This document shows, piece by piece, positions 26,693-64,000 of a stretch of 64,000 nt of DNA. A program made the position numbers and the translations under genes. Numbering within the stretch: position 1 is the first letter of the stretch; every line of letters starts with the position of its first letter. Under the pieces are notes generated by a model that searched no databases, was not told where the DNA came from, and saw only the letters and a list, made by a program, of their open reading frames with translations. The DNA is from Eledone cirrhosa (Eukaryota), in NCBI GenBank assembly GCA_964016885.1, contig OZ024743.1:4030001-4094000 (forward strand), read 5' to 3'.

Positions 26693-29600
26693 CTTTCTTT
26701 ATTAACCACGAGGGTTTACATAAAGTAGACATTAAGGACAGTACAGGACAAACAAGACGGTACAAATTGGCATTTCTGCGTGTAAAAAACAAAAACAGAG
26801 GATGTAACAAAAAAAAATAACAATGAAAAATTCCCCAATACGGGGGAGACTTCTGAGGGACATTCGTGGAGAAAGCCCATTAAAAAGCCACAGTGACCCT
26901 AACCACCAGGACAAGTGCCCTCTCCCAGTTTTCCACCTTTAATTTACAGACACATACTCAGAGTAAGCCCATTCACTCGGGCCATTCTTGATCTCTCACC
27001 CATCTTTCAGCAAAATGCTGGGAAGAGAGCACTTCCCTCTCTACCCTGATTTTCCTTTTCCACAAGTCAGCAATGCTCGGACACTGGACGAGTGCGTGCA
27101 GGACGGTTTCGTCGCCCTGCGCGCACCTCGGACATGCTCGGCTGACGGCACCTCCATGCCTGTAGAGTTTATCTCGAACTGGCAAAGCTCCTCGGTAGCA
27201 CTGCCAGGCCGGGGATTTATGGAAGTTGTCCATAGGCCCCGGCCCGAAAGTTCTTCCGAAGAGATTGGCTAGTTGATTTTCGTCGACGCCTAGAGTTTCT
27301 CCAAGTACGTCGTCGCTCTTCCCCTCCACTAATCCTCTATAGAACGCCAAGGTGGAGTTTCCACCTATCACATTGCCCGATTGGTCGAGGGCTGTGAGCG
27401 CCTGAAGACATTCCAGTCTCCAAGCGCTCCCTCTCGGTCTTCGCTTGACCCAGGACTGCAGCTTCGTCAAGGAGACGAGCTGGGGAAAGACGTGTCTAGC
27501 AAATGGAGACCACAGCTGATCACCGTCGAGGAAGAGGTGGAGATGTCGTAGCCTGAGCGCGTGTCTGCGCATCATCAGCCACGGCATGCCCAGCCCTCCA
27601 CGTAGCGGGTGTTGACAGCAGATGGAAGGCCTGACCATCGGAGCGCGTCCCTTCCGCAAAAAGCGAAAGAGCAAATGCTCCAGCGCAGTCAGGCGCGGAT
27701 TATGACAAGGTACGACGGTCAGGCGGTAGTAGATGACGGACGCCATGTACGCGTTAGCCACCTCCGCTCGATCTTTCAGGGATAGCTTCCTCTCCGCCCA
27801 TTTCTGGGTGAGAGAAGCCACCCTGCTCGTCACCTCGTCCCAGTTTTTGTCCGTCTGGAGGTCCGGACCGAACCAGACCCCGAGCAATTTAACCGGTCCG
27901 TCCGTCCAGCGTCCGACGACGCTGTTGGACGGCATGGACCAGCCTCTCCAGGTGCTGAGCTGGAGGCCCTCTGACTTTTCCTGGATGATCATTGCTCCTG
28001 TAATCGCTTCGTATTCTCTTAGTGTAGTGCCGATCGCCTCGATGTGTTTGGCGTTCGACACCACTACAGTGACATCGTCCGCATGTGCTGACACGGATCT
28101 TCCGCATCCTAGTTCACACGGGACCCCCCTTAACGTCTCCATTTTGTGCAGTAATGGCTTCAGAGTCAATACGTGCAAGAGGGACAAGAGGGGACATCCT
28201 TGGCGGACCGAGCGCATGATGCTGAACGGTTCCGAAAGGTGACCGTTCACTCTCACCACAGAGCAGATGTCGTTGTGCATGGCAGCGATCCAGCCTCTGA
28301 AGACGGGCCCAAAGCCAGCCGCCCTCATGACTGCCGCTAGGTAACGATGGTCGACCCTATCGAAAGCTTTCGACTGATCTTAATTGATCAAGGATCCACC
28401 CGTGCCAGGTTCCCTAGCTACTCTCTCTACGATGTATCGCATGAGGTGGAGGTTGTCGTGGATGGATCTGTTGCGAATGGCGCATGTCTGCGCCCCTCCC
28501 ACCAGACACCCAACGACAAGCGCCAACCTCTTTGCTAGCACCTTGGCCAAAATCTTGAACTCTGTGTTTAGCAGAGTTATGGGCCTGAAATTATCTATGG
28601 TATCCCCCTTGTTCAAATCCTTTCTCAGCAGCTCCACAGCGCCTCGGCTCACAGAGCTGGGAATTCTTCCGTTCTGTTGCCAGTTGCAGTAGACGTCCGC
28701 CAAGAGGCCTCCGAACAAGTCTGGCATCTGTACGTAAAGTTCATAAGGCAGACCATCCAAACCAGGCGATTTACCCCTTGTGCAGCCAGTCATTGCCTCC
28801 CGTACTTAAGCGGCTGTTATCGGCTTTTCGCAACACTCCGCCTCAGTGGCCGTGAGCCGCGGCAGTCCGTCGAGGTAGACACTAAAGTCCATCCCTCGAT
28901 TCGTCCCGCCGCTGCCCCCGAACAGCTGGGCGAAGTGTCACTGGAAAGCTGCACATATTTGCCCGGGATCGAGTAGCATGCGCTCGTCGTGGTCCACCAA
29001 AGACCGGATCCTGGCTTCGTTGCCACGACGCGCCTCCACCACTCGGGCCCATTGAACGGCTTTCGCCCCCTCGTGTCGTCTGAGAGCACGCACCCTAGCT
29101 CTGACAACGCAGCCTTCGTGCTTCGCATTGAAGAATTGGTCAAGGGCCAATTTCGCCGCAAGTACGTCGGTCGCGATGCCTTTGCTAAGTGCCTCGTCTA
29201 ATTTTCTAACTAGTTCTCCCTCTGCTTTATTTTTCTCTATTGCTAAAGCCTTACTAAATCTAATAGACTCTATTCTACTCGCTCTTTTCAGAGCAAACCA
29301 CCACTTGTTGTTGACGATGGCCCCCGTCAACACCCTCTTAACTAGTTCGCTAATCCGGTCTCTGTAAGCCTTGCGCGCTGGTAAGGACGCGTTTAGCTTC
29401 CAGTAGCCGGGTCCTCGTCTATGAAGCCTATTTAAGTCAAGCACACAGATCACGAGTTTGTGGTCCGTGTAGCTGAGTATCTTGAATTGTGGACAGCCTA
29501 TGCTAGACCTATCTATTTCCCTACAAAATACTCTATCTAGATATGATCTGGATGACCCAATGAGATTTGTCCAAGTCCACATTGGCACATTCGGGAAATC

Positions 29601-32313
29601 CAATCGGTACCTGTCAGACAGTTCAAAACGCCTGAGCAGGTTGGTGAGGCTCTTGTACCCTCCTCCCCTATCCGCTAATCCCACACAGTCCTAGCGTGCA
29701 TCTAAGATCCCGTTCCAGTCGCCCACTAACACTAAAGAGCGGGACGTTCCAAGAAAGGTCTCCAGACGCCGGAAGAAATCAGTCCGCCCTGCTCCTCTCG
29801 AGGCATAGACGGCCACTAAGCCTGAAAGCTTGCCGTCTCCGCTGGTCACGTCCAGCACCACCAACTTACCTTCTGGGTCCAGGAAGATGGACCGTATAGC
29901 GAGATCCAAACCTCTCCGAAAAAGCACAGCAACTCCTCCCCCGATCCAGGACGGCTGGGAGATACGTACACATCGTAACCGCCGAAGATCGGTGCGAAGG
30001 CCCGTGCTTCGGAGATTCTGGTCTCGCTGATGGCCACTACATCTATGTTTAGTGACCTGAGGTCGTTGGGCAGGTGGCCCTGCTTCCATGACGACCCCAA
30101 GCCACGCGCATTTATGCTGCCTATTCTGAGTGAGGTCACGTTGAAATGGAGTGGAAAAGATGGGAAAGACCACTTACCTTACTTCTCGTAGAGGAAGGAT
30201 GGTTTCTCCATCCTTTTCACTGCTTGTGGCCTCCTCCGGAAGGATGTCCTTATAAATCCTCCTGGAGAGTGTTTGTCGGAAGTCTGCGATGTCTTTGGGG
30301 AATTTTTGTTTTAGTGTCGTGTACGTTTTCTGTGTGATGCGAGTGATTTGTATGTGTGGAGGTGGTGTGAATTTTGGGTTGTTGTGTCGTCTTTTTCTGT
30401 GATGCTGGTGTTGTGTTGGATGTAGTGTAATAATTGGTTGTTGTTTAAATTTAATGCTGTGTAGTGTGTATCGTTTTCGTTGTTTTGTTTTGTTTGCGTT
30501 TGTTGTGGGTTTGTTTCTGTTTCGCTTTTTGGTGACTTTTGTGGTGTTAGTGATGGTGGTGTTGGGGTTAATGATGGTGATGGTGTTGGTGTTTGTGATG
30601 GTGGGGTTGGTGATGCTGGTGTGGATGGTGGCATATCTGTCCTAACTGTTTTGTTTGATAGTTTATTTGTTTCCCTCTGTATTTTGTTTTTGGATGGGGA
30701 GGGAAGAGAATTTTTTCTTTTTTGGTCTCTTTTTTTCTGATACCTTTTCCCACTCCTTGTCGTCCCAATCTGTCTCCAGTTGTGATAGGCCGGGGAGTGG
30801 AAAATGCTCCACAGGCGTTGGTTTTGGTTGTGGCGTGGTGGATGATGTAGGCGCTGGTGCTAGTTCTGGCGCGTTGGGTGGTAGTGGCGTTGGTTTTGCT
30901 ACTGTTTCTGGTGTTGTTGCTGTTACAGTTGCTTCTGTTGTTGCTGCTACAGTTGTTGCTGCCATCTCTGCTGCTGGTGGTGCTGATGGTTGAGTCACTG
31001 GGGTGGGTAAGAGAGATGGCCTCAACCTTTTAGCCTGAGGGCAGAAAGCCCTTAAGTGGGTTCCTTCACCACAAACGACACACCTAGGCCTTCTGCCCTC
31101 GACGATTACGGTGAGGTGGCTGCCGTCAGTGAGGTCTATTACCTCAGGGATCTCCTCAATGCTTTTTTGGTCCGCTTGGATCAGGAGCTCCATCCCAGAT
31201 CCGGACCAGTTCTCCTGCTTTTGTTTCGCTATTTCTATTATCTTGGTGTTGGCTTCGATGCCGGCGAGGACGGCAGCCATTAGCCAGGGAATTTCGATGG
31301 CCGGTGGAACGTGGGTCACCCTGGTCTTTACGAGTCTCTGTCCACAATAGCTTGGGACGGGTGTGAAGTCGTCACTTCTTAATGGGGCCATGGAGTGTTC
31401 TCTGGCCTCCTGTGGTGTTTCAAAGAACACGTCCACGGTTCCATATTTCTGCCCACGTCTGATGTGGGGTTATTTTTCCCACACATGTCCCAAAGCTTTT
31501 TGGATTTGGGACTCGGATGCCCGTTCCACTCGGCGCGATTTTATGCTAATCGTCCGATAAGACACGGTGGATCGGCGCCGATGCTCCATTTTATTAGGTG
31601 GAGTGGGGTGGGGGGTGGGGGTGAGGCTGACCCTGTATCCATCTTTCTTTACCATTTTTTTGGCTTCTTCTAATTCCTCCTGAGTTACCTGGAATGCTTC
31701 GCACTGTTTTGCTACTCTGGCAAAAATCAGGATGGTTTTCTTAATTTCATTGTTGCTGTTATCGTTATTTTTGTTATTGTTAATTTTAGTTTCAGTTGTG
31801 GTGGTGGTGGCGTCAGTGGTGTTCGGTGTGGAAGAGTTCATTTTGGTTGAATTCATTTCGATATCACGAGGTAATTTATTTTTTTCTTTTGTTTCTGTTG
31901 TCGCTGTGGTGGTGGTGGGGGTGGCGGCTTTAACACCTGCAGTCATTGGTAATGGCGGGAAATGAATGTCTGCCTGAGACAAATTTAAAATATTGCTACT
32001 GCTTATATTTTTAGTGTTGGCAAACGTAGTAATATTTACAATGGTGGTGTCGGTGTGAGGTGTTAGTTTGTGAGGAAGGTGTGACTCTGAGTCGTCCATG
32101 TTTTTCAAAGAAAAATCTTTGTTTGATAATTATAAAAGCTTAAAATTTTGGGCTCAAGGCCCCAATCTTTATGAGTGTCCTTTTCAGTAATCAATGTATG
32201 TGCACTTATATACAGTTAACAATAAAAATTTTCAATAAATGGTAATTTTAAACAACTGAAAATAACAAACATTTACGGAGCTCACGATAATACGATTTAC
32301 TACGTAGGTCGCC
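26693..32313 (-). mobile_element. Full-length decayed Tx1/L1-clade retrotransposon, family A (copy 1)
   Basis: ORF1 pieces 31470-32108 and 30663-31436 (CX2CX4HX4C), ORF1b (~30174-30720), and fragmented APE-RT ORF2 (~26950-30139). 5' end GGCGACCTACGTAG; 3' end AATAAAGAAA(TTA)n. Confidence 0.95.
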
Positions 32314-35300: not shown

Positions 35301-37882
35301 CTAACCTACGCGTTTTATCTAGGTCGACCATACAAATCACAAACTTGTGATCTGAATAGGCGACCGTTTCAAAACGTGGACAGCTTACACTATTTCTGTC
35401 TATTTTCTTAATGAATATCCTGTCTATATACGATCTAGATGACCCTATGCGGTTAGTCCATGTCCACACTGACGCATTAGGGAAATCTAGTCGGTACCTG
35501 TCAGACAGTTGGAACTGGTTGATCAGGTTCTTGAGGCTTTTGCACCTCCGCTCCTATCGGATACTCCCACACAGTCCCAGCGTGCGTCTAAGATGCCGTT
35601 CCAGTCCCCGCTAACAGTAAAGGGCGAGACGTACCCAGAAAGGTTTCCAGGCGTCTAAAGAAGTCCGGCCACCAGTCTAAAGGCACCACCTTCGTTATTG
35701 TTCACGTCTAGGACCACCAACTTCCCGTCCGGGTCCCGGAAGATCGACCTTACCTCGAGATCCAGGCCTTTCATAAACAGCACTGCCACTCCGCCTCCCA
35801 TTCCCGGCCGGCTAACAGATGCAAAGATCTGATAGTCGTCGAAAATGGGGGCTAGTGCGCGCGTGTCGGAAATCCTGGTCTCGCTGACGGCAATTACATC
35901 CATTTCTAGAGACTTGAGGTCGTTGAGCAGGTGACACTGCTTCCAGGACGATCCCAGGCCTCGAACATTTAAACTTCCTACTCTTAATACGGCCATGTTG
36001 GCACGTTAAAAAGAGAGAGAGAAAAGGTTTACTTACCTTCCGGGCTCTTGTGAAGGTCGGGTGGTTCGACCTCCATAGTTGGTGGGGTTTCTTTTGGGAA
36101 CCCCTTTAAAAGTCTTGAAGTGAGTTTTACGTTCGGGGTTCCCACGTCCAGAGGAAAGCTGCCTCGTATTTCTTTGTATAAATCGAGCGACATTCGCACC
36201 AGAAACAAATTTTCCGGCACGCGAAATGTGTTCGATTTAAAAAATTACCCCTCTTTTTGAATATTTTCACTTCGTGCAACGAGGGACATTAGTTCTTTGT
36301 TGGCCCTCCTGACGAGCACGAAGTTTTGTATGTTTTGTTGGTGTGATTTTATTTGTTTGCGTGGCTGTGGTGGTGATGGTTTTGGTGGTGTTGTTTCGGT
36401 TGTGTCTGTGTTTGTTGTGAGTGCGGTGTCTGTGGTTTCAGATGTTTGTGTGTATATTTGTTCTTGCGTCTGTTTAGGTTGTTTGCGTTTGGGGGATTCT
36501 GGTGATGGTGATAGTGGTGTTGATGTTGGTGTTATTGGAGAGATGTTTGCGTGGGTGGTGTCTGCGTTTTTTTATTGTAGGTGATTTTGTGCTTTGTTGA
36601 GTTTATTTTGCTTTTTGTGTTTCCTTTTTTGTATTTTGGGGGATTTGGGTTTTCCCTCATCTTCACTACTGGTAGATGTAAGTGTGTCTGTGTGTGTGTT
36701 TATGGTTTTATTGGTGTGTGTATTTTAGAGGGATGGGGGAATTTGACAGCTTTCCTCGTTTCCACCCTGGGTGGTCAATGTTGGTGGTGGTCTTTTATTG
36801 GTGTTGTTGTTAGTGGTTTTACCGGTGCTGGTGTTGGTTGTGGTCCTCGCCCCGGCGTCGGCAGCAGTGGAGCCTTTCGACCCCTTGTATCTTTCAGCAG
36901 TTGAGGGCAGAAGGCTCGAAAATGGGTTTTTTCTCCACAAACAAAACAATGCGGCCTTTTAGCCTTCGGTCATAATGTGAATGACCGTCCCATTCTGACG
37001 GCGGATGTGGTCCGGGATTGTCTTCACATTCTCGGGCCTGATCTGGAGCAGGATCTTCAGGTCAACCCCGGACCAGTCCTCTCTGGCCGTTCTGGTCACT
37101 TCTTTCGGGATGGTATCTGTCCCCTCCACAATGATACATCCCAGAAGCCACCACATGTCAAGGGATTCTGGGAGTGCCGAGTTAGGTTGGCCCAGGTTTG
37201 CTCTTGCTTGATGAGTTTCCATGCCTGGGTCAACTTTTCATCTTTGTTTGAGAGGTCCATGTTGTTCCATGTGTTCTTCTTGTTGTCGTTGGGGGTGTTG
37301 TTGTCATTGTCGTTGTTCTTGTTGTGTTGTTGTTATCACTGTCGCTGTTATCATTGTTGTCTCTGGTGCCACCGTTGTTCTCGGTGCAGTTGGTATTGTT
37401 GCTGTTGGTGTTGTCGCTGTTTGTTTTCATGTTAGTGGTGTTGATATTGTTGTTGCATTTGTCATTTTTTTTTGTTATCTGTATTTTCGTTGTCGCTGTT
37501 ACTGTCATTATTTTCAAAATTAGAGTTCTCATTGGTATCATTGGTGTCTTTGTTTACATTGTTTGTGGTGGTGTTTGTGTTATCAATCTCTGTTAATTTC
37601 GCCGTAGCGCTTCTCTCAACTTCTACGTCGTTGTCGCACGATAGCAGACATATCGCTGGGGGGCGTGGCTCAGCCATGTTTTTTTTTGTATTTTTTCTCG
37701 ATAATTTTGTAAAAAAGTTCAAATATTTGGGCCAAAAGGCGCAAATATTATTCTTTCCCTTTCACACGGCAAAGTCCAAGGGCTTGTATGACTTACACAA
37801 CAACAAACAATTCAATAAATCAGTTTTGATAGGCAAATAAGTGAACTTACGGGAGCGAGCAAAAAGACGTCCGTTCAGACTC
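32336..37882 (-). mobile_element. Near full-length decayed Tx1/L1-clade retrotransposon, family B
   Basis: APE start MAVLRVGSLNVRGL (35996), RT 33068-34558 (RQGCPLS, YADD), ORF1 fragments with CFVCGEKTHFRAFC. Bounded by (TAA)n on both sides. Confidence 0.95.
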
Positions 37883-42295: not shown

Positions 42296-42334
<39 letters not shown>

Positions 42335-42336
<2 letters not shown>

Positions 42337-44864
42337 TTTCTTTATTAACCACAAGGGTTTACATAAAGTAGACATTAAGGACAGTGCAGGACAATGCAGG
42401 ACGGTACAAATGGGCATTTCTGCGTGTAAAAAAACAAAAACAGAGGATGTAACAAAAATAACAATGAAGTACAGCCAGGTTGGATGAGAAACGGGGCAAG
42501 TGAGAAAGGGTCACTTACCTTGATCGTGTGATGTAGAGACAGTAGTCATGTGTGTTTCCAAGAGGATGTCAGTGTATATCGTCTTGGTAACCGATGCTCT
42601 GAAGTCTCCAACTGCGTTGGGGAATTTTTGTTTTAAAAGTTTTTACTGTTGACAGCTAGTCATGGGTGTTTCCAAGAGGATGTCAGTGTATATTCTCTTG
42701 GTAACCGACCCTCTGAAGTCTCCAACTGCGTTAGGGAATTTTTGTTTTAAAAGATTGTACTGTTCTATTTTGATATCAATGATGCTTATGTTTTTCGGGA
42801 GAGTTCTTGGTGTTGGTGGGCTGTAGTAGTACGTTTCTGTGATGTCTGTGTGCTGCTTTATAAGTTCTATGAGTTCTTTATTTGCCATGTTTATGGCTGT
42901 GTACTTTTGGGCTGGAGGGGTGATTTTGTTGCTGTTTTCTTCTTGTTGCTGTTGGGTGTGTGTGTTTTGTTGTGTTTGCGATGTTGGTGTTTTTCGCGAT
43001 GCTGGTGGTGGTGTGGTTGTTGTTGGCGGTGGTGCTAGTGGTGGTGATGGTGATGGTGATGGTGGTGGTGTTGCTGCAAGTCTCCTTGCAGCATTTACCC
43101 CTCTTTGTATGCCTTCGGTTTTGGAGGGTGAAGCTAAGCGTTTTTTTTTCTTTTTTGTGGCAGACCGTTTGCCATTTCACTCCAGCCTCCTACTCCATGT
43201 CGGATTCCGTGGCGTATGGGAGGGGTATGTGCTCCACGGCTGTTGGTGGTGGTAGTGGAGCCCTCTCCGGCGATTTTCTTGCTGGTGCAACTACTGCAAA
43301 TGTAGCTACTGGTGTTGCCGCTACTGATGATGCTGCTTTAGTTGTCCGTGGCCTTGGTACGGGTGCCATGGACGTTGCCCTCCTACTCACCGTGGAAGGG
43401 GCTTCTGCGTTTGTTACCTGCCCTGCTCTTGGTAGCAGTGGACAAGGCATTGGAATGAGAGCGGCCTTCTTCTAAGCTATCTTCTGCAGATAGGGCAAAA
43501 GGCCCTTAGGTGACCATTTGACCCACAGAGGTAACATTTTGGCCGTCTTCCTTCCACGCTTATAGGAAGTTGGAGTCCTTCCTCGAGGTCTATGATATCT
43601 GGGATAGCGTCGATACACTACTGGTCAGGTTGTATAATCATTTGCATGCCGATACCTGAGCAGATCTCACTCTCTCTCTATTTTCTCTACTTGCAGCATG
43701 GTCGTCTTGTCCTCGATTCCAGCAAGGACAGACGCAGCCAGCCATGGTATGGGCACGTCGGGTGGGACCTGTGTCACTTTGACCATCACAATTTACTGCC
43801 CGAAGTAGGAGAGCACCAAGACTATCTCCTCACTCTTTAGGGTTTCCAAAGAGTGAGACTTCGCTTCTTGGGATGTGGCGAAATGTACGTCTACTGTGGC
43901 GTACTTTCTGCCTCGGGTGATGTAGAATTTGCGTGCCCAGACGCACCCCAAGGCCTTTTGGATTTGTGCCTCCGTGGCTCTCTACACTTGATGTGACATT
44001 TTGCTTACGGTGCGGTAAGTCACCGTCCGTAGCTGCTGGTCCTTAAACAAATCGGGTGGAGGTTTTAGGGAAACTCTATTGGCGTTTCTTGTCACCATGG
44101 CCCTTGCGACTGCCATGTCCTCCCCTGTGACTAACACTGTTTCGATATTTCGGGCCACACCTGCAAAAGAATTGGTCTCTTTACAGTGGTACCACTATTG
44201 CTGCCGCTACTGGTCTTGCTGGTGGTGCTGAGATCGCTGTTACACGTATCGGTGTAATTGTTGTTGTTTTCGTTGATACTGTTGCTGTTGTTACTGTTAT
44301 TGTGGCTGTTGTTATTATTGTTGTTTTTGTTGATACTGTTCCTACTATTATTGTTGTTGTGGCTGTTATTATTGTCATTGTCGTTCTCTACCTTACCGCT
44401 GTTATTTTTGTTGTTGTTGTTGTTATTGATGGTGTTGGTGTTGGTGTTGTTGTTGGTGTTATTGTTGGTATTGTTTGTGTTAGGAATATTTGGTAATTTT
44501 AAATATGTAAAAATATCATTAAAAATGATATCGTTTCTCTTTTCCTTCGTAATATTTTCTTTTATATTTACCTTCGCTAGAATGCTGTCTTGTTGATATG
44601 TTGACAAAGTCTCACTCTCTATGTGTTGTCTGACAGGGCTCTCTCTCTCTCTTTCTTGTGTTATCTATGTTCAAAGAAATTCTTTTTACAAATAATATTT
44701 TTACATAATACGACACCCCGTAAAGGGGTGCCGTATTATTAATGTGTGAACCCCTATATTAGGATAGTCACTTCTTCTAAACCTTTATCAAGTTTAAAAC
44801 TTGAATAAAAGGCTTAGAACTGTTGAAAAAAACAGGAGGCGATGAGAAGCGTGGCTTCACCTTC
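42335..44864 (-). mobile_element. Chimeric ORF2-less Tx1 element: family C 5'UTR/ORF1/ORF1b joined to the last ~135 nt of the family A 3'UTR
   Basis: 42335-42468 matches the family A 3'UTR. 42469-44864 is a divergent ORF1 (RRPKCYLCGSNGHLRAFC) plus ORF1b and ~3 codons of ORF2. Bounded by (TAA)n. Confidence 0.85.
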
Positions 44865-45137
44865 AATAATAATAATAATAATATTAATAATAATGATTTC
44901 TTTATTAACCACAAGGGTTTACATAAAGTAGACATTAAGGACAGTGCAGGACAATGCAGGACGGTACAAATGGGCATTTCTGCGTGTAAAAAAACAGAGG
45001 TTGAAATAAAATAACAAAGAAAAATTCCCCAATAGGGGGGAGACTTCCAAGGGACATTTGTGGAGAAAGCCCATTAAAAGACCACAGTGGCCCTGACCAC
45101 CAGGGCAAGTGCCCTCTCCCAGTTTTCCACCTTTAAT

Positions 45138-48100
45138 TTACAGACACATACTCAGAGAAGGCCCATTCACTCGGGCCATACTTGCTTCTCTCACCCATCT
45201 TTCAACAAAATGCTGGGAAGAGAGCACTTCCCTCTCTACCCTGATTTTCCTTTTCAAATGAAATTTGAAAAAGTTAATCAGGGCATCACCGAAGAGGTAA
45301 GTGCTCGTTTCAGCCCTTTCAAACGTGTCCACCATACTATCTCTTTCGCCATGGCCACCAGACAGATAAAAACTGCCTGCCCTTCCAGGCTAAAGGAAGG
45401 GGGCGGGGCAATCCTCACGATGGACTCAGCTGATAGCTGGATCCGTCCTACACGTGACAGCAGGTGTTCGACATAAACCCACAAGTCAGCAATGCTCGGA
45501 CACTGGACGAGTGCGTGCAGGACGGTTTCGTCGCCCTGCGCGCATCTCGGACATGCCCGGCTGACGGCACCTCCATGCCTGTAGAGTTTATCCCGAACTG
45601 GCAAAGCTCCTCGGTAGCACTGCCGGGCCAGGGATTTCTGGAAGTTGTCCATAGGCCCCGGCCCGAAAGTCCTTCCGAAGAGATTGGCTAGTTGATTTTC
45701 GTCGACGCCTAGAGTTTCTCCAAGTACGTCGTCGCTCTTCCCCTCCACTAATCCCCTATAGAACGCCAAGGTGGAGTTTCCACCGATCACATTGCCCGAT
45801 TGGTCGAGGGCTGTGAGCGCCTGAAGACATTCCAGTCTCCAAGCGCTCCCTCTCGGTCTTCGCTTGACCCAGGACTGCAGCTCAGTCAAGGAGACGAGCT
45901 GGGGAAAAACGTGTCTTGCAAACGGCGACCACACCTGCTCACCGTCGAGGAAGAGGTGGAGATGTCGTAGCCTGAGCGCGTGTCTGCGCATCATCAGCCA
46001 CGGCATGCCCAGCCCTCCACGTAGCGGGTGTTGACAGCAGATGGACCGCCTGACCATCGGAGCGCGTCCCTTCCACAAGAAGCGAAAGAGCAAACGCTCC
46101 AGCGCAGTCAGGCGGGGCTTAGGACAAGGTACGACGTTCAGGCGGTAGTAGATGACGGATGCGATGTACGCATTCGCCACCTCCGCTCGACCTTTCAGGG
46201 ATAGCTTCCTCTCGGCCCATTTCTGGGTGAGAGAAGCCACCCTGCTCGTCACCTCGTCCCAGTTTTTGTCCGTCTGGAGGTCTGGACCGAACCAGACCCC
46301 TAGAAATTTAACCGGTCCGTCCGTCCAGCGCCCGACGACGGTGTTGGACGGCATGGACCTGCCTCTCCAGGTGCCGAGCTGCAGGCCCACTGACTTTTCC
46401 TGGTTGATCATTGCTCCTGTCACCGCTTCGTATTCTCTTAGTGTAGTGCCGATCGCCTCGATGTGTTTGGCGTTCGACACCACTACGGTGACATCGTCGG
46501 CATATGCTGACACGGATCTTCCGCATCCTAGTTCGCGCGGGACCCCCCTCAACGTCTCCAGTTTGTGCAGTAATGGCTCGAGAGTCAATACGTACAATAG
46601 GGACGAGAGGGGACATCCTTGGCGGACCGAGCGCATGATGTTGACCGGTTCCGAAAAGTGACCGTTCACTCTCACTACAGAGCAGATGTCGCTGTGCATG
46701 GCAGCGATCCAGCCTCTGAAGACGGGCCCAAAGCCAGCCGCCCTCAGGACTGCCGCTAGGTAACGATGGTCGACCCTATCGAAGGCTTTCGATTGATCTA
46801 AATTGATCAAAGACCCACCCTTGCCAGGTTCCCTAGCTACCCTCTCTACGATGTATCGCATGAGGTGGAGGTTGTCGTGGATGGATCTGTCGGGAATGGC
46901 GCATGTCTGTGCCTCTCCCACCAGACCACCAACGACAAGCGCCAACCTCTTTGCTAGCACCTTGGCCAAAATCTTGAACTCTGTGTTTAGCAGAGTTATG
47001 GGCCTAAAATTATCTATGTTATCCCCCTTGTTCGGATCCTTTCTCAGCAGCGCCACCGCTCCTCGGCTCACAGAGCTGGGAATTCTCCCGTTCTGTTGCC
47101 AGTTGCAGTAGACGTCCGCCAAGAGGCCTCCGAACAAGTTTGGCATTTGTACGTAAAGTTCATAGGGCAGACCATCCAAACCAGGCGATTTACCCCTTGT
47201 GCAACTAGTCATTGCATCCCGTACTTCAGCGGTTGTTATCGGCTTTTCGCAACACTCCGCCTCAGTGGCCGAAAGCCGCAGCAGTCCGTCGAGGTAGACA
47301 CTAAAGTCCATCCCTCGATCCGGCCCGCCACTGCCCCCGAACAGTTGTGCGAAGTGTCGCTGAAAAGCTTCACACATTTGCCCGGGATCGAGTAGCATGC
47401 GCCCGTCGTGGTCCACCAAAGACCGGATCCTGGCTTTGTTGCCACGACGCGCCTCCGCCACTCGGGCCCATTGAACGGCTTTCGTCCCCTCGTGTCTGAG
47501 AGCACGCACCCTAGCTCTGACAACGCAGCCTTCGTGCTTTGCATTGAAGAATTGGTCAAGGGCCAATTTCGCCGCAAGTACGTCGGTCGCGATGCCTTTG
47601 CTAAGCGCCTCATCTAATTTTCTAACTAATTCTCCCTCTGCTCTATTTTTCTCTATTGCTAAAGTCTTACTAAACCTAATGGACTCTATTCTAATTGCTC
47701 TTTTCAGAGCAAACCACCACTTGTTGTTGACGATGGCCCCCGTCAACGCCCGCTTAACTAGTTCGCTAATCCGGTCTCTGTAGGCCTTGCGCGCTGGTAA
47801 GGACGCGTTTAACTTCCAGTAGCCGGGTCCTCGTCTATGAAGCCTATCTAAGTCAAGCACACAGATCACGAATTTGTGGTCCGTGTAGCTGACTATCTTG
47901 AATTGTGGACAGCCTATGCTAGACCTATCTATTTCCCTACAAAATACTCTATCTAGATATGATCTGGATGACCCTATGCGATTTGTCCAAGTCCACATTG
48001 GTACATTCGGGAAATCCATTCGGTACCTGTCAGACAGTTCAAAACGTCTGAGCAGGTTGGTGAGACTCTTGCACCCTCCTTCCCTATCCACTAATCCCAC

Positions 48101-48556
48101 ACAATCCCAGCGTGCATCTAAGATCCCGTTCCAGTCGCCCACTAACACTAAAGAGCGGGACGTTCCAAGAAAGGTCTCCAGACGTCGGAAGAAATCAGGC
48201 CGCCCTGCTCCTGTCGGGGCATAGACGGCCACTAACCTGAAAGCTTGCCCGTCTCCGCTGGTCACGTCCAGCACCACCAACTTACCTTCTGGGTCCAGGA
48301 AGATGGCCCGTATGGCAAGATCCAAACCTCTCCGAAAAAGCACAGCAACTCCTCCCCCCGATCCCGGACGGCTGTGAGATGCGTACACATCGTAGCCGCC
48401 GAAGATCGGTGCGAAAGCCTGTGCTTCGGAGATTCTGGTCTCGCTGATGGCCACTACATCTATGTTTAGTGACCTGAGGTCGTTGAGCAGGTGGCCCTGC
48501 TTCCATGACGACCCCAAGCCACGCGCATTTATGCTGCCTATTCTGAGTGAGGTCAT
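45138..48556 (-). CDS. ORF2 polyprotein: AP endonuclease, reverse transcriptase and CCHC domain (1-nt frameshift near 45308)
   Basis: SINARG, SET, YAP, GDWN, YLDR and YTDH (APE); KSPGLDG, FRPITLLN, KAFDRVDH, RQGCPLS and YADD (RT); CPRC...H...C. The C-terminus continues in 45138-45335, as in the copy ending at 61807. Confidence 0.92.
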
Positions 48557-48590
48557 GCTGAAAAGGAGTGGAAAAGATGGGAAAGACCAC

Positions 48591-49178
48591 TTACCTTACT
48601 TCTCGTAGGGGAAGGACGGCTTTTCCATCCTTTTCACTGCTTGTGGCCTCCTCAGGAAGGATGTCCTTATAAATCCTCCTGGAGAGTGCTTGTCGGAAGT
48701 CTCCGATGTCTTTGGGGAATTTTTGTTTTAGTGTCATGTACGTTTTCTGTGTGATGCGAGTGATTTGTATGTGTGGAGGTGGTGTGAATTTTGGGGTTGT
48801 TGTGTAGTCTTTTTCTGTGATGCTGGTGTTGTGTTGGATGTAGTGTAATAATTGCTTGTTGTTCAAATTTAATGCTGTGTAGTGTGTATCGTTTTGGTTG
48901 TTTTGTTTTGTTTGCGTTTGTTGTGGGTTTGTTTCTGTTTCGCATTTTGGTGACTTTTGTGGTGTAGGTGATGGTGGTGCTGGGGATAATGATGGTGATG
49001 GTGTTGGTGTTTGGGTTGATGGGGTTGGTGATGCTGGTGTGGATGGTGGCGTATCTGTCCTAAATTTTTTGTTTCTTAGTTTATTTGTTTCCCTCTGTAT
49101 TTTGTTTTTGGAGGGGGAAGGAAGAGAATTTTTTCTTTTTTTTTTTTCCGGATATCGTTTCCCACTCCTCGTCGTCAC
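48591..49178 (-). CDS. ORF1b: conserved third ORF in the +1 frame relative to ORF1 (probably a frameshift extension of ORF1)
   Basis: 195 open codons with no ATG at the start. Its C-terminal domain is homologous to 42643-42888 and 36029-36330 of other families. Confidence 0.7.
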   Translation of the reverse strand: MTTRSGKRYPEKKKRKNSLPSPSKNKIQRETNKLRNKKFRTDTPPSTPASPTPSTQTPTPSPSLSPAPPSPTPQKSPKCETETNPQQTQTKQNNQNDTHYTALNLNNKQLLHYIQHNTSITEKDYTTTPKFTPPPHIQITRITQKTYMTLKQKFPKDIGDFRQALSRRIYKDILPEEATSSEKDGKAVLPLREVR

Positions 49179-50553
49179 AATCTGTCTCCAGTTGTGATAG
49201 GCCGGGGAGTGGAAAATCCTCCACAGTCGTTAGTTTTGGTTGTGGTGTGGTGGATGGTGTAGGCGCTGGTGCTAGTTCTGAAGCGTTGGGTGGTGGTGGT
49301 GTTGGTTTTGCTGGTGGTGGTAGTGGTGTTGGTTTTGCTACTGTTGCTGGGGTTGTTGCTGTTATAGTTGCTTCTGTTGTTGCTGCTACAGTTGTTCCTG
49401 CCATCTCTGCTACTGGTGGTGTTGATGGTTGTGTCACTGGGGTGGGTAGGAGAGGCGGCCTCAACCTTTTAGCCTGAGGGCAGAAAGCCCTTAGGTGGGT
49501 TCCTTCATCACAAACGACACACCTAGCTCTTCTGCCCTCGACAATTACCGTGAGGTGGCTGCCGTCAGTGAGGTCTATTACCTCTGGGATCTCCTCAATG
49601 CTTTTTTGGTCCGCTTGGATCAGGAGCTCCATCCCAGATCCGGACCAGTTTTCCTGCTTTTCTTTTGCTACTGCTATTATTTTCGTGTTGGCTTCGATGC
49701 CGGCGAGGACAGCCGCTATTAGCCAGGGAATTTCAATGGCCGGTGGAACGTGGGTCACCCTGATCTTTACGAGTCTCTGGCCACAATAGCTTGGGACGAG
49801 TGTGAGGTCGTCACTTTTTAATGGGGCCATGGAGTGTTCTCTAGCCTCCTCTGATGTTTCAAAGAACACATCCACGGTTCCATACTTTTGCCCACGTCTG
49901 ATGTGGGTTTTTCTTGCCCACACATGTCTCAAAGCTTTTTGGATTTGGGACTCGGATGCCCGTTCCACTCGGCGCGATTTTACATTTATTGTTCTATACG
50001 ACACGGTGCACAGGCGCCGATGCTCCATTTTATTAGGTGGGGGGGTGAGGCTGACCCTGTACCCATCTTTCTTTACCATTTGTTTGGCATTTTCTAAATC
50101 TTCTTGAGTTACCGTGAACGCTTCGAATTGTTTTGCTACGATGGCGAAACTGAGGGTCAGTTTTATAATGTCATTGTTGTTGCTATCGTTAATATTAATT
50201 TTATTTTCAGTTGTGGTGGTGGTGACGTCAGTCGTCTTTGGTGGGGAAGAGTCCATTTTGCTTGATTTCATTTCGACGTCACGAGTTAATTTATTTTTTT
50301 CTTCTTTTGTTTCTGTTGTCGCGGTGGTGGTGGTGGTTGTCGCGGTGGTGGTGGTGGTGGAGGGTTTAACACCTGCAGTCATTGGTAATGGCGGGAAATG
50401 AATGTCTGCCTGAGACAAATTTAAAATATTGCTACTGCTTATATTTTTTTTTGTGTTGGCAAACGTAGTAACATTTACAATGGTGGTGTCGGTGTGAGGT
50501 GTTATTTTGTGAGGAAGGCTTTCAGCTGCTTCGTGCAGAGGGGAATTAGCCAT
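49081..50553 (-). CDS. ORF1 protein (Thr/Asn-rich N-terminus, probable RNA-binding core, single CCHC zinc knuckle, Pro/Thr-rich tail)
   Basis: 490 aa open frame; CVVCDEGTHLRAFC is CX2CX4HX4C; lies upstream of the APE-RT ORF. Confidence 0.88.
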   Translation of the reverse strand: MANSPLHEAAESLPHKITPHTDTTIVNVTTFANTKKNISSSNILNLSQADIHFPPLPMTAGVKPSTTTTTATTTTTTATTETKEEKNKLTRDVEMKSSKMDSSPPKTTDVTTTTTENKININDSNNNDIIKLTLSFAIVAKQFEAFTVTQEDLENAKQMVKKDGYRVSLTPPPNKMEHRRLCTVSYRTINVKSRRVERASESQIQKALRHVWARKTHIRRGQKYGTVDVFFETSEEAREHSMAPLKSDDLTLVPSYCGQRLVKIRVTHVPPAIEIPWLIAAVLAGIEANTKIIAVAKEKQENWSGSGMELLIQADQKSIEEIPEVIDLTDGSHLTVIVEGRRARCVVCDEGTHLRAFCPQAKRLRPPLLPTPVTQPSTPPVAEMAGTTVAATTEATITATTPATVAKPTPLPPPAKPTPPPPNASELAPAPTPSTTPQPKLTTVEDFPLPGLSQLETDCDDEEWETISGKKKKKKFSSFPLQKQNTEGNK

Positions 50554-50762
50554 TTTTTTTCAGAGAAATTTTTGGATAATAATAAAAGTTAAAATTTTGG
50601 GCACAAGGCCCCAATCTTTTTGGGTGTCCTTTTCGGAAAACAATGTATGTGTGCTTATAAACAGTTTACAATAAAATTTTCCATAAATGGTAATTTTTAA
50701 ACAAACGGAAATAACAAACCTTTACGGAGCTCACGATAATACGATTTCCTACGTAGGTCGCC

Positions 50763-57989: not shown

Positions 57990-58011
57990 TAATGATAATA
58001 ATAATAATAAT

Positions 58012-61000
58012 GAATTCATTTATTAGCCACAAGGGCCGACATGTAGGGGACAATACAAAGACAGGGACAGTGGGGGTTTACAATAAGGTCGAGTAAAAGT
58101 GCACAATGGCAAGACTAATTTAACAATGAAAATATAAAAATATGAAATAAACTATGCATAAATATAACAAAATAAATTCCGATAGGTGGTGGACAACCCT
58201 GGGGTGACTCGGGTACCTCACGAATCCTGAACCACCCTGCGCTTCTAGGGCACACAGGGAGAGCACCCCTCTCTTCAAGTTAGCTAGCCTATAGGCGCAT
58301 GGTCAGAGTAGGCCCATTCACACGAGCCATTCTCGCCACATTCACCCACCTTTTAGCAAATGTACTGGGGGGGGGGGGGGCAGCACTTCTCTCTCCACCC
58401 TCACCTTTCTTTCCAGGTGAAACTTGAAGAAGTTGATGAGGGATTGGCCGAAGAGAAGAGTGTCTCTCTTCAGTCCTTTTAACCTGGTGTACCATATAAC
58501 CTCTTTCGCAACTGCCACCAGACAGAGGAAAATTTCCTGCTCTTCCTGACCTAAGGAAGGTGGCGGCTCGATCTTCACTATGGACTCGGCCGATAGCCGG
58601 ATTCGTTCCACACGCGACAGTAGCTGTTCGACATAACTCCACAAGTCAGTAATGCACGGACATTGGACAAGTGCGTGCAGAACGGTTTCGTCGTTCTGTG
58701 CGCATCTTGGGCAGGTCCGACTGACAGCACTTCCGTACCTGTAGAGTTTATCCCGAACCGGCAGTGCCCCCCGGTAGCACTGCCAAGCGAGGGATTTCTG
58801 GAAATTATCCAGCTTCTCCGAGTGCGTCGTCGCACTTGCCCACCACTAATCCTCTATAGAACTCGGGAGTGGAAGTTCCACTGATCGCATTGCCCGCTTG
58901 GTAGAGGGCTGTGAGTGCCTGGTAACATTCCAGCTGCCAGTCACCCAGTCTCGGTCTCTTCTTGACCCAGGACTGCAGCTCAGTCAAAGAAATGAGCTGC
59001 GGAAAGGCCCGTCTGATAAACGGCGACCACGCCTGTTCACCGTTGATGCAGAATATCTGGAGATGTCGCAGCCTCAACGCATGTCTGCGCATCATTAGCC
59101 ATGCCATGCCCAGCCCTCCGCGTAGAGGGTGCTGGCAGCAGATGGACCGCCTCACCAACGGAACTTGTCCTCTCCACAAGAATTTGAAGAGGAGCCGTTC
59201 CAACTTGACGAGGCGCGGACGGGGGCAAGGCACGACGGTCAGGCGGTAGTAGATGACGGACGCGATGCACGCATTCGCCACCTTCGCGCGACCTTTCAGT
59301 GATAGCTTCCTCCCAGCTCATTTTTGGGTGAGACTGGCTACTCTGCTCGTTACCTCGTCCCAATTCTTATCCACCTGGAGGTCTGGTCCGAACCAAACCC
59401 CTCGCAACTTTACCGGTCCGTCCGTCCAGCGCCCCACGACGCTGTTGGACGGCATGGGCTTGCCTCTCCAGGTTCCGAGCTGCAAGCCCACCGACTTTTC
59501 CGGGTTAAGTATGGCTCCTGTCAACCTTTCATATTCCTTCAATAAGGTGCCGACCACCTCGATTTCTGAGGTGTTCGACACCATACGGTGATGTCGTCCG
59601 CATAAACCGACACCGCCTTTCCACGTCCCGGTTAGAGCGGGATGCCCTGCAACAGCTCCAACTTCCGCAGTAAAGGCTCGAGAGTCAATACGTACAGAAG
59701 GGAAGAGAGAGGGCCCCCTTGACGGCCCGATCGGGAGAGCCGAATTGGTTCCGAGAGGTGGCCATTAACTTTGACCACCGAGCGTGTGCCGCTGTGCATT
59801 ACAACGATCCAGCTTCTGAAGACAGGGCCGAAGCCAGCTGCTTTGAGGACAAACTCCAGATACCGATGGTCGACCCTATCGAATGCTTCCGATTGATCTA
59901 AATTGATCAGTGCCCCACCGAATCCAGGTTTACACCCTACCCTCTCTATGATGTATCGCATGAGGTGGCGATTGTAGTGTATGGACCTGGGTGGGATTGC
60001 GGGGGAGGGGGGCGGGTAGTGGGAGAGCTTTGCTCGTTTTCCCCTTGGATTGGTTTTGGTGTTGGTGGTGATCCGGCTGTTTTTGATGTTGGTGTCCGTG
60101 TTTTTGTTGATGTTGTTTTTGGTGGTGGTGGTGGTGGTGGTGCAGCTTTCCGTGCTGACACTGGCGTTGGCAACAAAGGAAGTTTGCGACCCCCTGAATT
60201 TTTGCGCTGAAGGCAGAAGGCTTGCAGATGCGTTGCTTCCCCGCAGACGAAGCAGCGTGGCCTTCTTCCGTCAATGATTAGTTGGATTGTTGTCCCGTCA
60301 TGCAGGCGGGCAAAATCCGGGATGTTGTTCATGTCCTCCGGTTTCATTTGGAGAAGAATCTCCAAATCCATTCCGGACCAGTCCTCTCCCTCTGTCCTTT
60401 TGATATCCAGGAGGGTAGTGTCTGTCCCCTCCTCGATTACGCATCAGAGCAGCCACCATATGTTCATTCCTGGAGGGATGCTGGGAATGCGGACCTTTAC
60501 TGTCCTTTTACCCATGTAGGACGGATGCATGATAATGCGTTCCGTTCTGCAGGGGGTCACCGAGTGCTTAATAGTGAGGGCCTCGGTTTTGAGCAGTACC
60601 GAGATGGTACCGAACTGTTTGCCTCTTTCTTCATACTCTATGTTACTTCCGATACACTCCAAAGCAGCCTCGACCTCTGCTTGGCTGGCAAGTTCCACTT
60701 TTCGTGTCTGCACCTAAATGCATCGAAAGAACACCGTCCTCCTTTGCATGGCCGCTATTGCCTCGTCCGGGATGGTCAGGTTTGCCCAGGACTTCTCTCG
60801 CTTAATTATCCTCCACGCTTTGGCCAACTGTTCGTCTTTATCGCTAATATCAATATCAATATTCAATAAGCGCTTTGTTTTTGCTGCTGCTGCAGCAAAT
60901 GTCGTGTTTCTGATGCTCTTATTGTTGGTGTTGTCATTCTTGCTGTTGTTATTGGTGTTGTTGTTGTTGTTTTGTTTGTTGATGCTGTTGCCACCACCAT

Positions 61001-61493
61001 CCGTGTTTACATTGAAGCTGTCGGTGTTATTGTCGTTATTGCTCTGAGTTGTTGTTGTGGTGGTGGTGGTGGTGATGTCGTTTTCAGATGATACTGCTGC
61101 TATCCCAGAAGGATGTGAAGGTAGCTTTTTAGATTTGCCTTCACATTCAGTAGAGTGGATGACAGGCATGACTGTAGCCGTCGTAGTCGTGGTGAAATCT
61201 ACAGTGGCTGCCTTTAAACTTTTGACCTGAACGTTGTTTACCGTTTCAAGGTCGAACATTTTCATAATTTTTTTTTTTTGGTGGGGAAGCGATTTTTTTC
61301 GAAATTTTAAAAAATAAATCTGAATATTCGGGCTTAAAGCCCGAATATTGAGAGGTATCCCTCTCTTTAAATCAAGATGTGTGCCTTAAGTTTCGTTAAC
61401 GACAAGAAAATACAAAAAATGACACTTTAAAACAGCTTAAAGTTACAAACCTTTTCCCCCGCAGATTTGTACTGTCTTCACACATGTGCGGCC
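58012..61493 (-). mobile_element. Internally deleted Tx1 element: family D 5'UTR/ORF1 fused at ~60001 to the 3' half of a family B-like ORF2
   Basis: ORF1 pieces 60714-61265, 60444-60713 and 59946-60371 (CFVCGEATHLQAFC). 58289-60001 resembles 32610-34388. Bounded by (TAA)n. Confidence 0.9.
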
Positions 61494-61543
<50 letters not shown>

Positions 61544-61545
<2 letters not shown>

Positions 61546-64000
61546 TTTCTTTATTAACCACAAGGGTTTACATAAAGTAGACATTAAGGACAGTGCAGGA
61601 CAATGCAGGACGGTACAAATGGGCATTTCTGCGTGTAAAAAAAACAAAAATAGAGGATGTAACAAAAATAACAATGAAAATAACAATGAAAAATTCCCCA
61701 ATAGGGGGGAGACTTCGGAGGAACATTTGTGGAGAAAGCCCAGTAAAAAGCCACAATGACCCTGACCACCAAGGCAAGTGCCCTCTCCCAGTTTTCCACC
61801 TTTAGTTTACAGATATATACTCAGAGTCGGCCCATTCACTCGGGCCATTCTTGCTTCTCTCACCCATCTTTCAACAAAATGCTGGGAAGAGAGCACTTCC
61901 TTCTCTACTCTGATTTTCCTTTTCAAATGAAATTTGAAAAAGTCAATCAGAGCATCACCGAAGAGGTAAGTGCTCGTCTTCAGCCCTTTCAAACGTGTCC
62001 ACCATACTATCTCTTTCGCCATGGCCACCAGACAGATAAAAACTGCCTGCCCTTCCCGGCTAAAGGAGGAGGGCGGGGCAATCCTCACGATAGACTCAGA
62101 TGATAGCTGGATCCGTCCTAAACGCGACAGCAGGTGTTCGACATAAACCCACAAGTCAGCAATTTTCGGACACTGGACGAGTGCGTGCAGGACGGTTTCG
62201 TCGCCCTGCGCGCATCTCGGACATGCCCGGCTGACGGCACCTCCATGCCTGTAGAGTTTATCCCGAACTGGCAAGGCTCCTCGGTAGCACTGCCAGGCCA
62301 GAGATTTCTGGAAGTTGTCCATAGGCCCTGGCCCGAAGGTTCTTCCGAAGAGATTGGCTAGTTGATTTTCGTCGACGCCTAGAGTTTCCCCAAGTACGTC
62401 GTCGCTCTTCCCCTCCACTAATCCTCTATAGAACGCCGAGGTGGAGTTTCCACCGATCACATTGCCCGATTGGTCGAGGGCTGTGAGCGCCTGAAGACAT
62501 TCCAGTCTCCAGGCGCTCCCTCTCGGTCTTCGCTTGACCCAGGACTGCAGCTCCGTCAAGGAAACGAGCTGGGGAAAAACGCGTCTAGCAAACGGCGACC
62601 ACACCTGATCACCGTCGAGGAAGAGGTGGAGATGTCGTAGCCTGAGCGCGTGCCTGCGCATCATCAGCCACGGCATGCCCAGCCCTCCACGTAGCGGGTG
62701 TTGACAACAGATGGACCTCCTGACCATCGGAGCACGTCCCTTCCACAAAAAGCGAAAGAGCAAACGCTCCAGCGCAGTCAGGCGAGGCTTAGGACAAGGT
62801 ACGACGGTTAGGCGGTAGCAGATGACAGACGCGATGTACGCGTTAGCCACCTCCGCTCGACCTTTCAGGGATAGCTTCCTCTCCGCCCATTTCTGGGTGA
62901 GAGAAGCCACCCTGCTCGTCACCTCGTCCCAGTTTTTGTCCGTCTGGAGGTCCGGACCGAACCAGACCCCTAGCAATTTAACCGGTCCGTCCGTCCAGCG
63001 CCCGACGACGCTGTTGGACGGCATGGACCTGCCTCTCCAGGTGCCGAGCTGCAGGCCCACTGACTTTTCCTGGTTGATCATTGCTCCTGTCACCGCTTCG
63101 TATTCTCTTAGTGTAGTGCCGATCGCCTCGATGTGTTTGGCGTTCGACACCACTACGGTGACATCGTCCGCATATGCTGACACGGATCTTCCGCATCCTA
63201 GTTCGCGCGGGACTCCCCTCAACGTCTCCAGTTTGTGCAGTAATGGCTCGAGAGTCAATACGTACAAGAGGGACGAGAGGGGACATCCTTGGCGGACCGA
63301 GCGCATGATGTTGAACGGTTCCGACAGGTGACCGTTCACTCTCACCACAGAGCAGATGTCGCTGTGCATGGCAGCGATCCAGCCTCTGAAGACGGGCCCA
63401 AAGCCAGCCGCCCTCAGGACTGCCGCTAGGTAACGATGGTCGACCCTATCGAAAGCTTTCGACTGATCTAAATTGATCAAGGACCCACCCGTGCCAGGTT
63501 CCCTAGCTACCCTCTCTACGATGTATCGCATGAGGTGGAGGTTGTCGTGGATGGATCTGTCGGGAATGGCGCATGTCTGCGCCTCTCCCACCAGACCACC
63601 AACGACAAGCGCCAACCTCTTTGCTAGCACCTTGGCCAAAATCTTAAACTCTGTGTTTAGCAGAGTTATGGGCCGGAAATTGTCTATGTTATCCCCCTTG
63701 TTCGGATCCTTTCTCAGCAGTGCCACCGCTCCTCGGCTCACAGAACTGGGAATTCTCCCGTTCTGTTGCCAGTTGCAGTAGACGTCCGCCAAGAGGCCTC
63801 CGAACAAGTCTGGCATCTGTACGTAAAGTTCATAGGGCAGACCATCCAAACCAGGCGATTTACCCCTTGTGCAGCCAGTCATTGCCTCCCTTACTTCAGC
63901 GGCTGTTATCGGCTTTTCGCAACACTTCGCCTCAGTGGCCGAGAGCCGCGGCAGTCCGTCGAGGTAGACACTAAAGTCCATCCCTCTACCCGGCCCCCCG
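61544..64000 (-). mobile_element. Tx1/L1-clade retrotransposon, family A (copy 3), continuing beyond the window
   Basis: 3'UTR and ORF2 are near-identical to copy 2; (TAA)n at 61494-61543. Confidence 0.97.
61807..64000 (-). CDS. ORF2 (RT plus CCHC part, uninterrupted; 5' part lies outside the window)
   Basis: 724+ aa open frame with all RT motifs and an intact C-terminus. Confidence 0.92.
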   Translation of the reverse strand, partial: GGPGRGMDFSVYLDGLPRLSATEAKCCEKPITAAEVREAMTGCTRGKSPGLDGLPYELYVQMPDLFGGLLADVYCNWQQNGRIPSSVSRGAVALLRKDPNKGDNIDNFRPITLLNTEFKILAKVLAKRLALVVGGLVGEAQTCAIPDRSIHDNLHLMRYIVERVAREPGTGGSLINLDQSKAFDRVDHRYLAAVLRAAGFGPVFRGWIAAMHSDICSVVRVNGHLSEPFNIMRSVRQGCPLSSLLYVLTLEPLLHKLETLRGVPRELGCGRSVSAYADDVTVVVSNAKHIEAIGTTLREYEAVTGAMINQEKSVGLQLGTWRGRSMPSNSVVGRWTDGPVKLLGVWFGPDLQTDKNWDEVTSRVASLTQKWAERKLSLKGRAEVANAYIASVICYRLTVVPCPKPRLTALERLLFRFLWKGRAPMVRRSICCQHPLRGGLGMPWLMMRRHALRLRHLHLFLDGDQVWSPFARRVFPQLVSLTELQSWVKRRPRGSAWRLECLQALTALDQSGNVIGGNSTSAFYRGLVEGKSDDVLGETLGVDENQLANLFGRTFGPGPMDNFQKSLAWQCYRGALPVRDKLYRHGGAVSRACPRCAQGDETVLHALVQCPKIADLWVYVEHLLSRLGRIQLSSESIVRIAPPSSFSREGQAVFICLVAMAKEIVWWTRLKGLKTSTYLFGDALIDFFKFHLKRKIRVEKEVLSSQHFVERWVREARMARVNGPTLSIYL

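Follow-up and report, generated by a model that had tools for sequence, protein, structure and literature searches.

A perfect 5' splice-site consensus kept at the ORF1 stop of a lineage of L1-group LINEs seen in Eledone cirrhosa

The excess of ORF1 over ORF2 protein that LINEs make from one RNA is usually attributed to translation alone. A route through splicing is described for the Ty1/Copia element Evade, which produces a spliced subgenomic GAG mRNA beside an unspliced full-length RNA, and in which U1 blocks premature termination (PMC5580714). In human L1, by contrast, splicing has been called detrimental, and a conserved donor there was explained by an overlapping RUNX3 site (PMC5860796). 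The elements described here resemble Evade in that a U1-type donor is conserved close to where the structural gene ends, here ORF1. Evade differs as an LTR element whose short intron is linked to early termination, whereas in the present LINEs splicing would remove ORF2 as a whole, about 3.6 kb, with the normal 3' end still in use. Splicing in Ty1/Copia was demonstrated with RNA and mutants (PMC5580714), while here it is a prediction from sequence; the candidate acceptors are kept within family A and within family M, at places that are not homologous. With human L1 the elements share membership of the L1 group, donors in their own RNA and a proposed structural masking; the human SpIREs differ in being dead-end forms, spliced within the 5'UTR or from 5'UTR to ORF1, and the sections of that paper drawn on here name no ORF1-only product (PMC5860796). 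The Tx1-clade elements Kibi and Koshi are likewise animal LINEs in microsatellites, here (ATT)n, and the portions of their description used here mention no splice signal at the ORF junction (PMC4494074). The present lineage is likely of Tx1 type, a label that comes from an earlier reading of the letters of the window (the sequence-only reading). In Octopus vulgaris, 13 families of L1-Tx1 elements have been active recently (PMC13282606), and the accessible text of that paper and of PMC11203168 gave no matches for splicing. In the literature searched, no description of a conserved donor at a LINE ORF1 stop was found; Repbase and paper supplements, which lay outside the search, may note the motif. 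What appears to be new is a donor kept at the ORF1 stop of a LINE lineage, subgenomic splicing being already known in Ty1/Copia.

The window, the whole 64,000-nt stretch of Eledone cirrhosa DNA that was analysed, consists of LINEs nested within (ATT)n microsatellites. Several L1-group copies, of families A, B, C and D, lie on the minus strand, to which all window coordinates below refer unless marked otherwise; the other elements we take to be Dong/R4-like. Over positions 26700-64000 the two kinds of LINE sit in one another's (ATT)n tails, a common microsatellite target, and the 5' and 3' ends that were read for A, B, C and D copies adjoin (ATT)n, as fits the target-site preference that is common, though not universal, in the Tx1 clade. 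The ORF2 domains, the upstream ORF1, the AATAAA signal and the tail agree with the L1 group of non-LTR retrotransposons. In family A copy 2 (A2), ORF1 starts as a frame of 490 aa with a CX2CX4HX4C knuckle (49081-50553) and continues, through a +1 shift at an A-run, in a second frame (48591-49229), whose end weakly matches (BLASTP, E 0.075) the C-terminus encoded by the undivided ORF1 of family M, introduced below. ORF2 of A2 (45278-48556) encodes an AP-type endonuclease, a reverse transcriptase (RT) and a zinc finger (Pfam Exo_endo_phos, RVT_1 and zf-RVT), and stops early compared with copy A3. Of its relatives with a solved structure, human L1 ORF2p ranks first (E 4e-53, versus 2e-21 for R2). 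Named close relatives occur in Octopus sinensis and Argonauta hians, as fits an octopod host. Family A is highly abundant in this host, with 84,566 contigs of one run matching 44900-50750. Three copies belonging to two families have the ORF1 shift at one shared A-rich stretch (about 49150 in A2, about 30720 in copy 1 of family A, A1, and about 43150 in C), after W-x-x-V/I and a lysine run. The shift is either a programmed frameshift or recurrent slippage; ORF1 of families M and N is one continuous frame, unlike that of A and C.

The motif AAGGTAAGT is present on the minus strand at all four ORF1/ORF2 junctions of the window, with its GT at 48594 in A2 (48589-48597), 30177 in A1 (30172-30180), 36036 in family B (36031-36039) and 42518 in family C (42513-42521). 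It reads AAG/GTAAGT and conforms to MAG/GTRAGT, the perfect 5' splice-site consensus. The GT lies 38 nt before the ORF2 start in A2 and A1 and 40 nt before it in B and C, and a C/T-rich spacer leads to the start contexts CAGC-ATG (A2), CAAC-GTG (A1), CAAC-ATG (B) and CAAC-CTG (C), much as the sequence-only reading had described them. Its account of the frames was also correct: the C-terminal ORF1 frame crosses the donor as EVR-stop in family A, where the TAA of A2 (48593-48591) falls within the donor 9-mer, and as GK-stop in B and C (E-G-K-stop and Q-G-K-stop, respectively). That every family carries the donor is true of A, B and C and not of family D (about 58010-61490), where the junction has gone through an internal deletion. 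MAGGTRAGT occurs six times in the window against 2.15 expected, a count reached in 2 of 100 shuffles. All six sites are on the element sense strand, four at the junctions and two in the family A endonuclease, namely a second perfect donor in A2, which is coding (PE/GKL; GT 48285, 48280-48288), and the internal donor of A1 (GT 29869, 29864-29872).

Relatives were collected as 134 loci with a related ORF2, from the best 80 of 243 and the best 80 of 103 confirmed matches; 27 loci with no visible endonuclease start were dropped, and the rest were grouped with the window copies into 50 clusters. In 4 of the 50 cluster representatives a 9/9 donor stands at most 70 nt upstream of ORF2, against 4 of 2867 control windows taken from the same elements. 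These four clusters are A, B, C and the new family M, animal LINE DNA that is co-binned with the bacterial assembly G001 (loci L081-L119 except L116, plus L126). None of the 45 distant cluster representatives scored 9/9, and the donor was accordingly rejected as a clade-wide Tx1 feature. In a quick-search RT tree made only of the retrieved relatives, A, B, M, N (L116) and P0012 form one clade (SH-aLRT 100); family C has no RT and so is not placed. The sister family N (L116, L135) lies within this clade and is intact, and has a TAATG stop-start overlap instead of a junction donor, so the donor signal is dispensable.

Family M carries the same 9-mer at its junction in 69 of 69 rows, which come from overlapping loci and are hence redundant. 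The donor is 13 nt ahead of the ORF2 ATG and its position +7 varies (G, C, T, A). It reads GAG TAA G/GTAAGT, with the ORF1 stop first and donor positions -1 to +6 non-coding, so that the motif occurs in three registers relative to the ORF1 stop: that of A, that of B and C, and that of M. ORF2 of A and M is 42% identical in residues and fourfold-degenerate sites are saturated (identity 0.28-0.30), versus a fourfold-site identity of 0.61 between A and B. By our own arithmetic, seven non-coding bases would be retained neutrally, given an identity of 0.29, with a chance of about 2e-4. The three registers and the retention across saturated divergence indicate a nucleic-acid signal, and the third register in M bears out the earlier view of the motif as conserved at the RNA level. 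It is very likely a selected RNA signal of U1 type, from which we infer the binding of U1 itself. The G001 contigs C3-C19 (L081-L119, L135 and L137) are host-derived head-to-tail arrays of near-identical intact LINEs with a period of about 6.4-6.85 kb; 5'-truncated units stand at one end of the array, and the orientation relative to flanking DNA varies between contigs.

The pyrimidine-rich spacer between the ORFs of A2 (48557-48588) is predicted to pair with the purine-rich ORF1 end. The sequence-only reading had treated the pyrimidine tract as part of the invariant signal. It is indeed present at the junctions of the window, but it is not specific: spacers with at least 70% C+T occur in 17 of the 50 clusters, 14 of these being donor-less, and the tract is absent in M. 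As it is common in distant relatives and missing from M, the tract was rejected as a specific signal or conserved unit. Also rejected as a general feature was a 37-nt GT..AG segment in the A2 spacer, removal of which would fuse ORF1 to ORF2 in frame; a spacer ending CAG/C-ATG is found in A2 only, and the AG is missing at that place from A1, B, C and M. The predicted pairing of the spacer with the donor or the ORF1 end uses different helices in A, B and C, with a hairpin of 7 bp between donor and tract in B and of 9 bp in C, and in family M it is ORF2 codons that are predicted to pair with the donor region. Junction folding gave z-scores against shuffles of -3.8 (A2), -2.5 (A1), -4.9 (B) and -1.9 (C). 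The predicted cost of opening the donor is 5.1-10.9 kcal/mol, compared with a median of 2.8 kcal/mol at the ORF1 stop of 30 donor-less elements. In a masking test picked after the folds had been seen, shuffles of the downstream 30 nt reached the observed cost in 69 (A2), 12 (A1), 27 (B) and 1 (C) of 150 cases, and in 18, 3, 1, 0 and 7 of 150 for five M variants; 7 of the 30 donor-less elements passed at p<=0.1. The donors of the M 3'UTR are unmasked, with 19-143 of 150 shuffles reaching the observed cost. These predictions do no more than suggest a masking of the junction donor by a hairpin.

A candidate 3'UTR acceptor, previously put forward for family A, was recovered in four A copies. In A2 it comprises a T-tract with ACACGCAG (44980-45000; AG 44981-44980, first exon base 44979) and in A1 it lies at 26776-26795 (AG 26777-26776); the other two have their AG at 61630-61629 and, on the plus strand, at 7119-7120. 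The sequence ACACGCAG/A is kept in the four A copies and in C, and a crude score of our own puts the site in first place for A1 and A3 and in third place for A2. The predicted terminal exon of A2 (44883-44979) contains AATAAA at 44906-44901, followed by the (ATT)n tail. No 3'UTR acceptor common to B and D was found, and the four best acceptor scores of family B all fall within ORF2. In family M, a second donor stands 14 nt past the ORF2 stop, with GT(A/G)AGT in 51 of 51 rows and variation on the exon side and at +3, and a pyrimidine-YGTAG acceptor follows about 240 nt further on in 44 of 51 rows. Family N has CAG/GTAAGT about 40 nt past the ORF2 stop. The arrangement of 3'UTR donor, T-tract and conserved acceptor can be seen in L085 (9472-10180), in other M loci and in L116 (4272-5030). 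One M variant has its ORF2 stop within the 3'UTR donor, in the register found for ORF1 in family A, and M 5'UTRs (L104 5090-5580, L095, L085) also contain donor-like and acceptor-like sequences.

Spliced family A RNA is predicted to encode ...REVR followed by 19 residues from the 3'UTR, with the stop in the last exon; the predicted spliced product of M leaves ORF1 unchanged. A stop near the last exon junction permits escape from nonsense-mediated decay and every such donor is within about 40 nt of a stop, so the spliced products would escape it. A 3' motif, GGGG(A)ATTTTT, is common to A, B and M. Since the A acceptor lies 3' of it, spliced A RNA would lose this presumably functional motif.

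Copy C resembles the half-L1 element HAL1 in being an ORF1-only derivative of an L1-group element (PMC5753468). It differs from HAL1 in being one chimeric copy, with ORF1 from family C and its 3' end from family A, and it did not arise by splicing from the donor. About 10 nt of the ORF2 start are joined near 42469/42468 to the family A 3' end (42334-42478), so that the copy runs from ORF1 through donor, spacer and the 10 nt into a 3' end that is 99% identical to 61503-61678. With the acceptor AG at 42421-42420, donor and acceptor flank 99 nt, and the break is 50 nt past the donor and 49 nt ahead of the acceptor. Copy C was rejected as a spliced retrocopy, with an exact GT-to-AG deletion, because it keeps both sites; as judged from its layout it is an ORF1-only deletion or template-switch chimera. 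If spliced to its own A-type acceptor it would read stop-free into the tail. At the end of ORF1 in this copy (window 42334-44864), about 113 nt are also duplicated in tandem.

In-silico spliced junctions, such as retrocopies lacking exactly the donor-to-acceptor segment would carry, were found neither in the window nor in 145 loci; in G001, all 65 of 65 ORF1 ends lead on to ORF2, detected as an endonuclease match. In four contig runs searched with 44900-50750, there was no contig joint from about 44979 to 48595 among the 15 of 2371 listed, no loose contig end at the donor among the 24 of 4823 listed and no variant place within the motif among the 40 of 1314 listed; contig listings of this extent do not amount to evidence of absence. 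Protein searches with ORF1 or with the spliced ORF1 C-terminus gave no match, no relatives were found among viral contigs or plasmids, and the Rfam search gave no match.

The explanation we favour, to which we give a little less than an even chance, is that the donor is partially spliced to the element's own 3'UTR terminal exon, giving an ORF1-only mRNA. U1 snRNP would bind the junction donor in nascent RNA, and pairing with downstream bases would partly mask the donor and keep splicing partial. A minority of transcripts would be joined from the donor to the 3'UTR acceptor to form the ORF1-only mRNA, the unspliced RNA would supply ORF2 and the template for copying, and the outcome would be an excess of ORF1 protein. 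Within this proposal the unspliced RNA is the one copied, so the intron would persist. U1 binding, splicing and the protein ratio are steps that we infer. The kept A acceptor, the second donor and acceptor of M and the Ty1/Copia precedent speak for such splicing. It is weakened by the want of an acceptor shared by B and D, by the intact but donor-less family N and by the stop-free product of C. Spliced M RNA would keep the whole 3' end, yet every one of the G001 ORF1 ends continues into ORF2, and the masking is uneven, being weak in A2 and B and passed by some donor-less elements. In a more ambitious form, possible but doubtful, the lineage would set its ORF1:ORF2 ratio by alternative splicing. 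The hairpin-masked donor at the ORF1 stop and the open donor past ORF2 in M would compete for the 3'UTR acceptor. Three RNAs would result: an mRNA for ORF1 alone, a spliced mRNA that retains the full coding sequence, and an unspliced RNA, the only one to be copied; this would amount to a retrovirus-like programme in an intron-retaining LINE.

The main rival, conceivable if somewhat unlikely, is that the donor binds U1 and is rarely or never spliced; U1 would then suppress premature polyadenylation or retain part of the RNA in the nucleus. The donor is indeed far better conserved than the acceptor, and in the 3'UTR of M there are AATAAA signals past the second donor, some 250 nt short of the true end. 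There is precedent both in the block of premature termination by U1 in Evade (PMC5580714) and in the nuclear retention caused by unspliced 5' splice sites (PMC9074902). However, ORF1, upstream of the donor, holds most of the AATAAA/ATTAAA hexamers (7 of 9 in A2, 5 of 7 in B), and none occurs between the A2 donor and the ORF2 end, which leaves little nearby to protect; the conserved acceptors of A and M would also go unexplained. U1 binding and partial splicing are not exclusive and could coexist, as in Evade (PMC5580714). We regard as unlikely a role of the motif in an ORF2 translation signal, made of stops in both frames and a hairpin, with its likeness to a donor incidental. In A, B, C and M, both ORF frames do meet stops in the motif and its flanks, the junctions of A2, A1 and B fold better than shuffles, and family N has the TAATG overlap in place of the motif. 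Two stops need neither the invariant AAGG nor +5G and +6T, though, and spacer length varies (13 versus 38-40 nt). Moreover, the consensus is found again past the end of ORF2 in both M and N, with no further ORF after it, and shows there the A/G exchange at +3 that is typical of donors.

The two remaining accounts are less probable still. It seems improbable that the motif simply results from a basic ORF1 C-terminus with TAA after it and has been passed on with no function in RNA. Distant elements often end ORF1 with KK-stop, GK-stop or RKK-stop and thereby form near-donors; L026 scores 8/9, and a decayed distant copy, L027, scores 9/9 as one of nine in its cluster. Such ends may be the origin of the donor, and GK-stop explains B and C. 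They do not account for A (EVR-stop) or for the non-coding donor of M, for which neutral retention has the low chance given above, nor do they produce a 9/9 donor in any distant cluster representative. Very improbable, finally, is that the donor serves mainly to join ORF1 to host exons further downstream, or that it overlaps a site for a DNA-level factor. For the latter there is the example of the human L1 donor and RUNX3 (PMC5860796). For the former, in the Octopus sinensis RefSeq model XP_036360308.1 a stretch of endonuclease from this group of elements stops precisely at the internal donor (...IFLDPE), a weak hint that donors of the internal type may be used. This gene model is a prediction, however, and concerns the internal rather than the junction donor, and it is not evident what the element would gain from fusions with host exons that could preserve the motif across so much divergence.

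If the donor is kept under selection through partial splicing, the LINE would be using the spliceosome to its own benefit and would have converged on the Ty1/Copia solution, in contrast to human L1, where splicing is considered harmful (PMC5860796). Family A is abundant enough that its donors could also shape host transcripts. Among the retrieved proteins, P0089 contains ...QGEQ, a hydrophobic spacer and M, which could conceal a GTGAG donor, and its upstream part has no ORF1 match. Residues 41-101 of P0002, a tectonic-3-like model of Octopus sinensis, correspond to an exon from this group of elements that ends at the internal donor (48280-48288 in A2).
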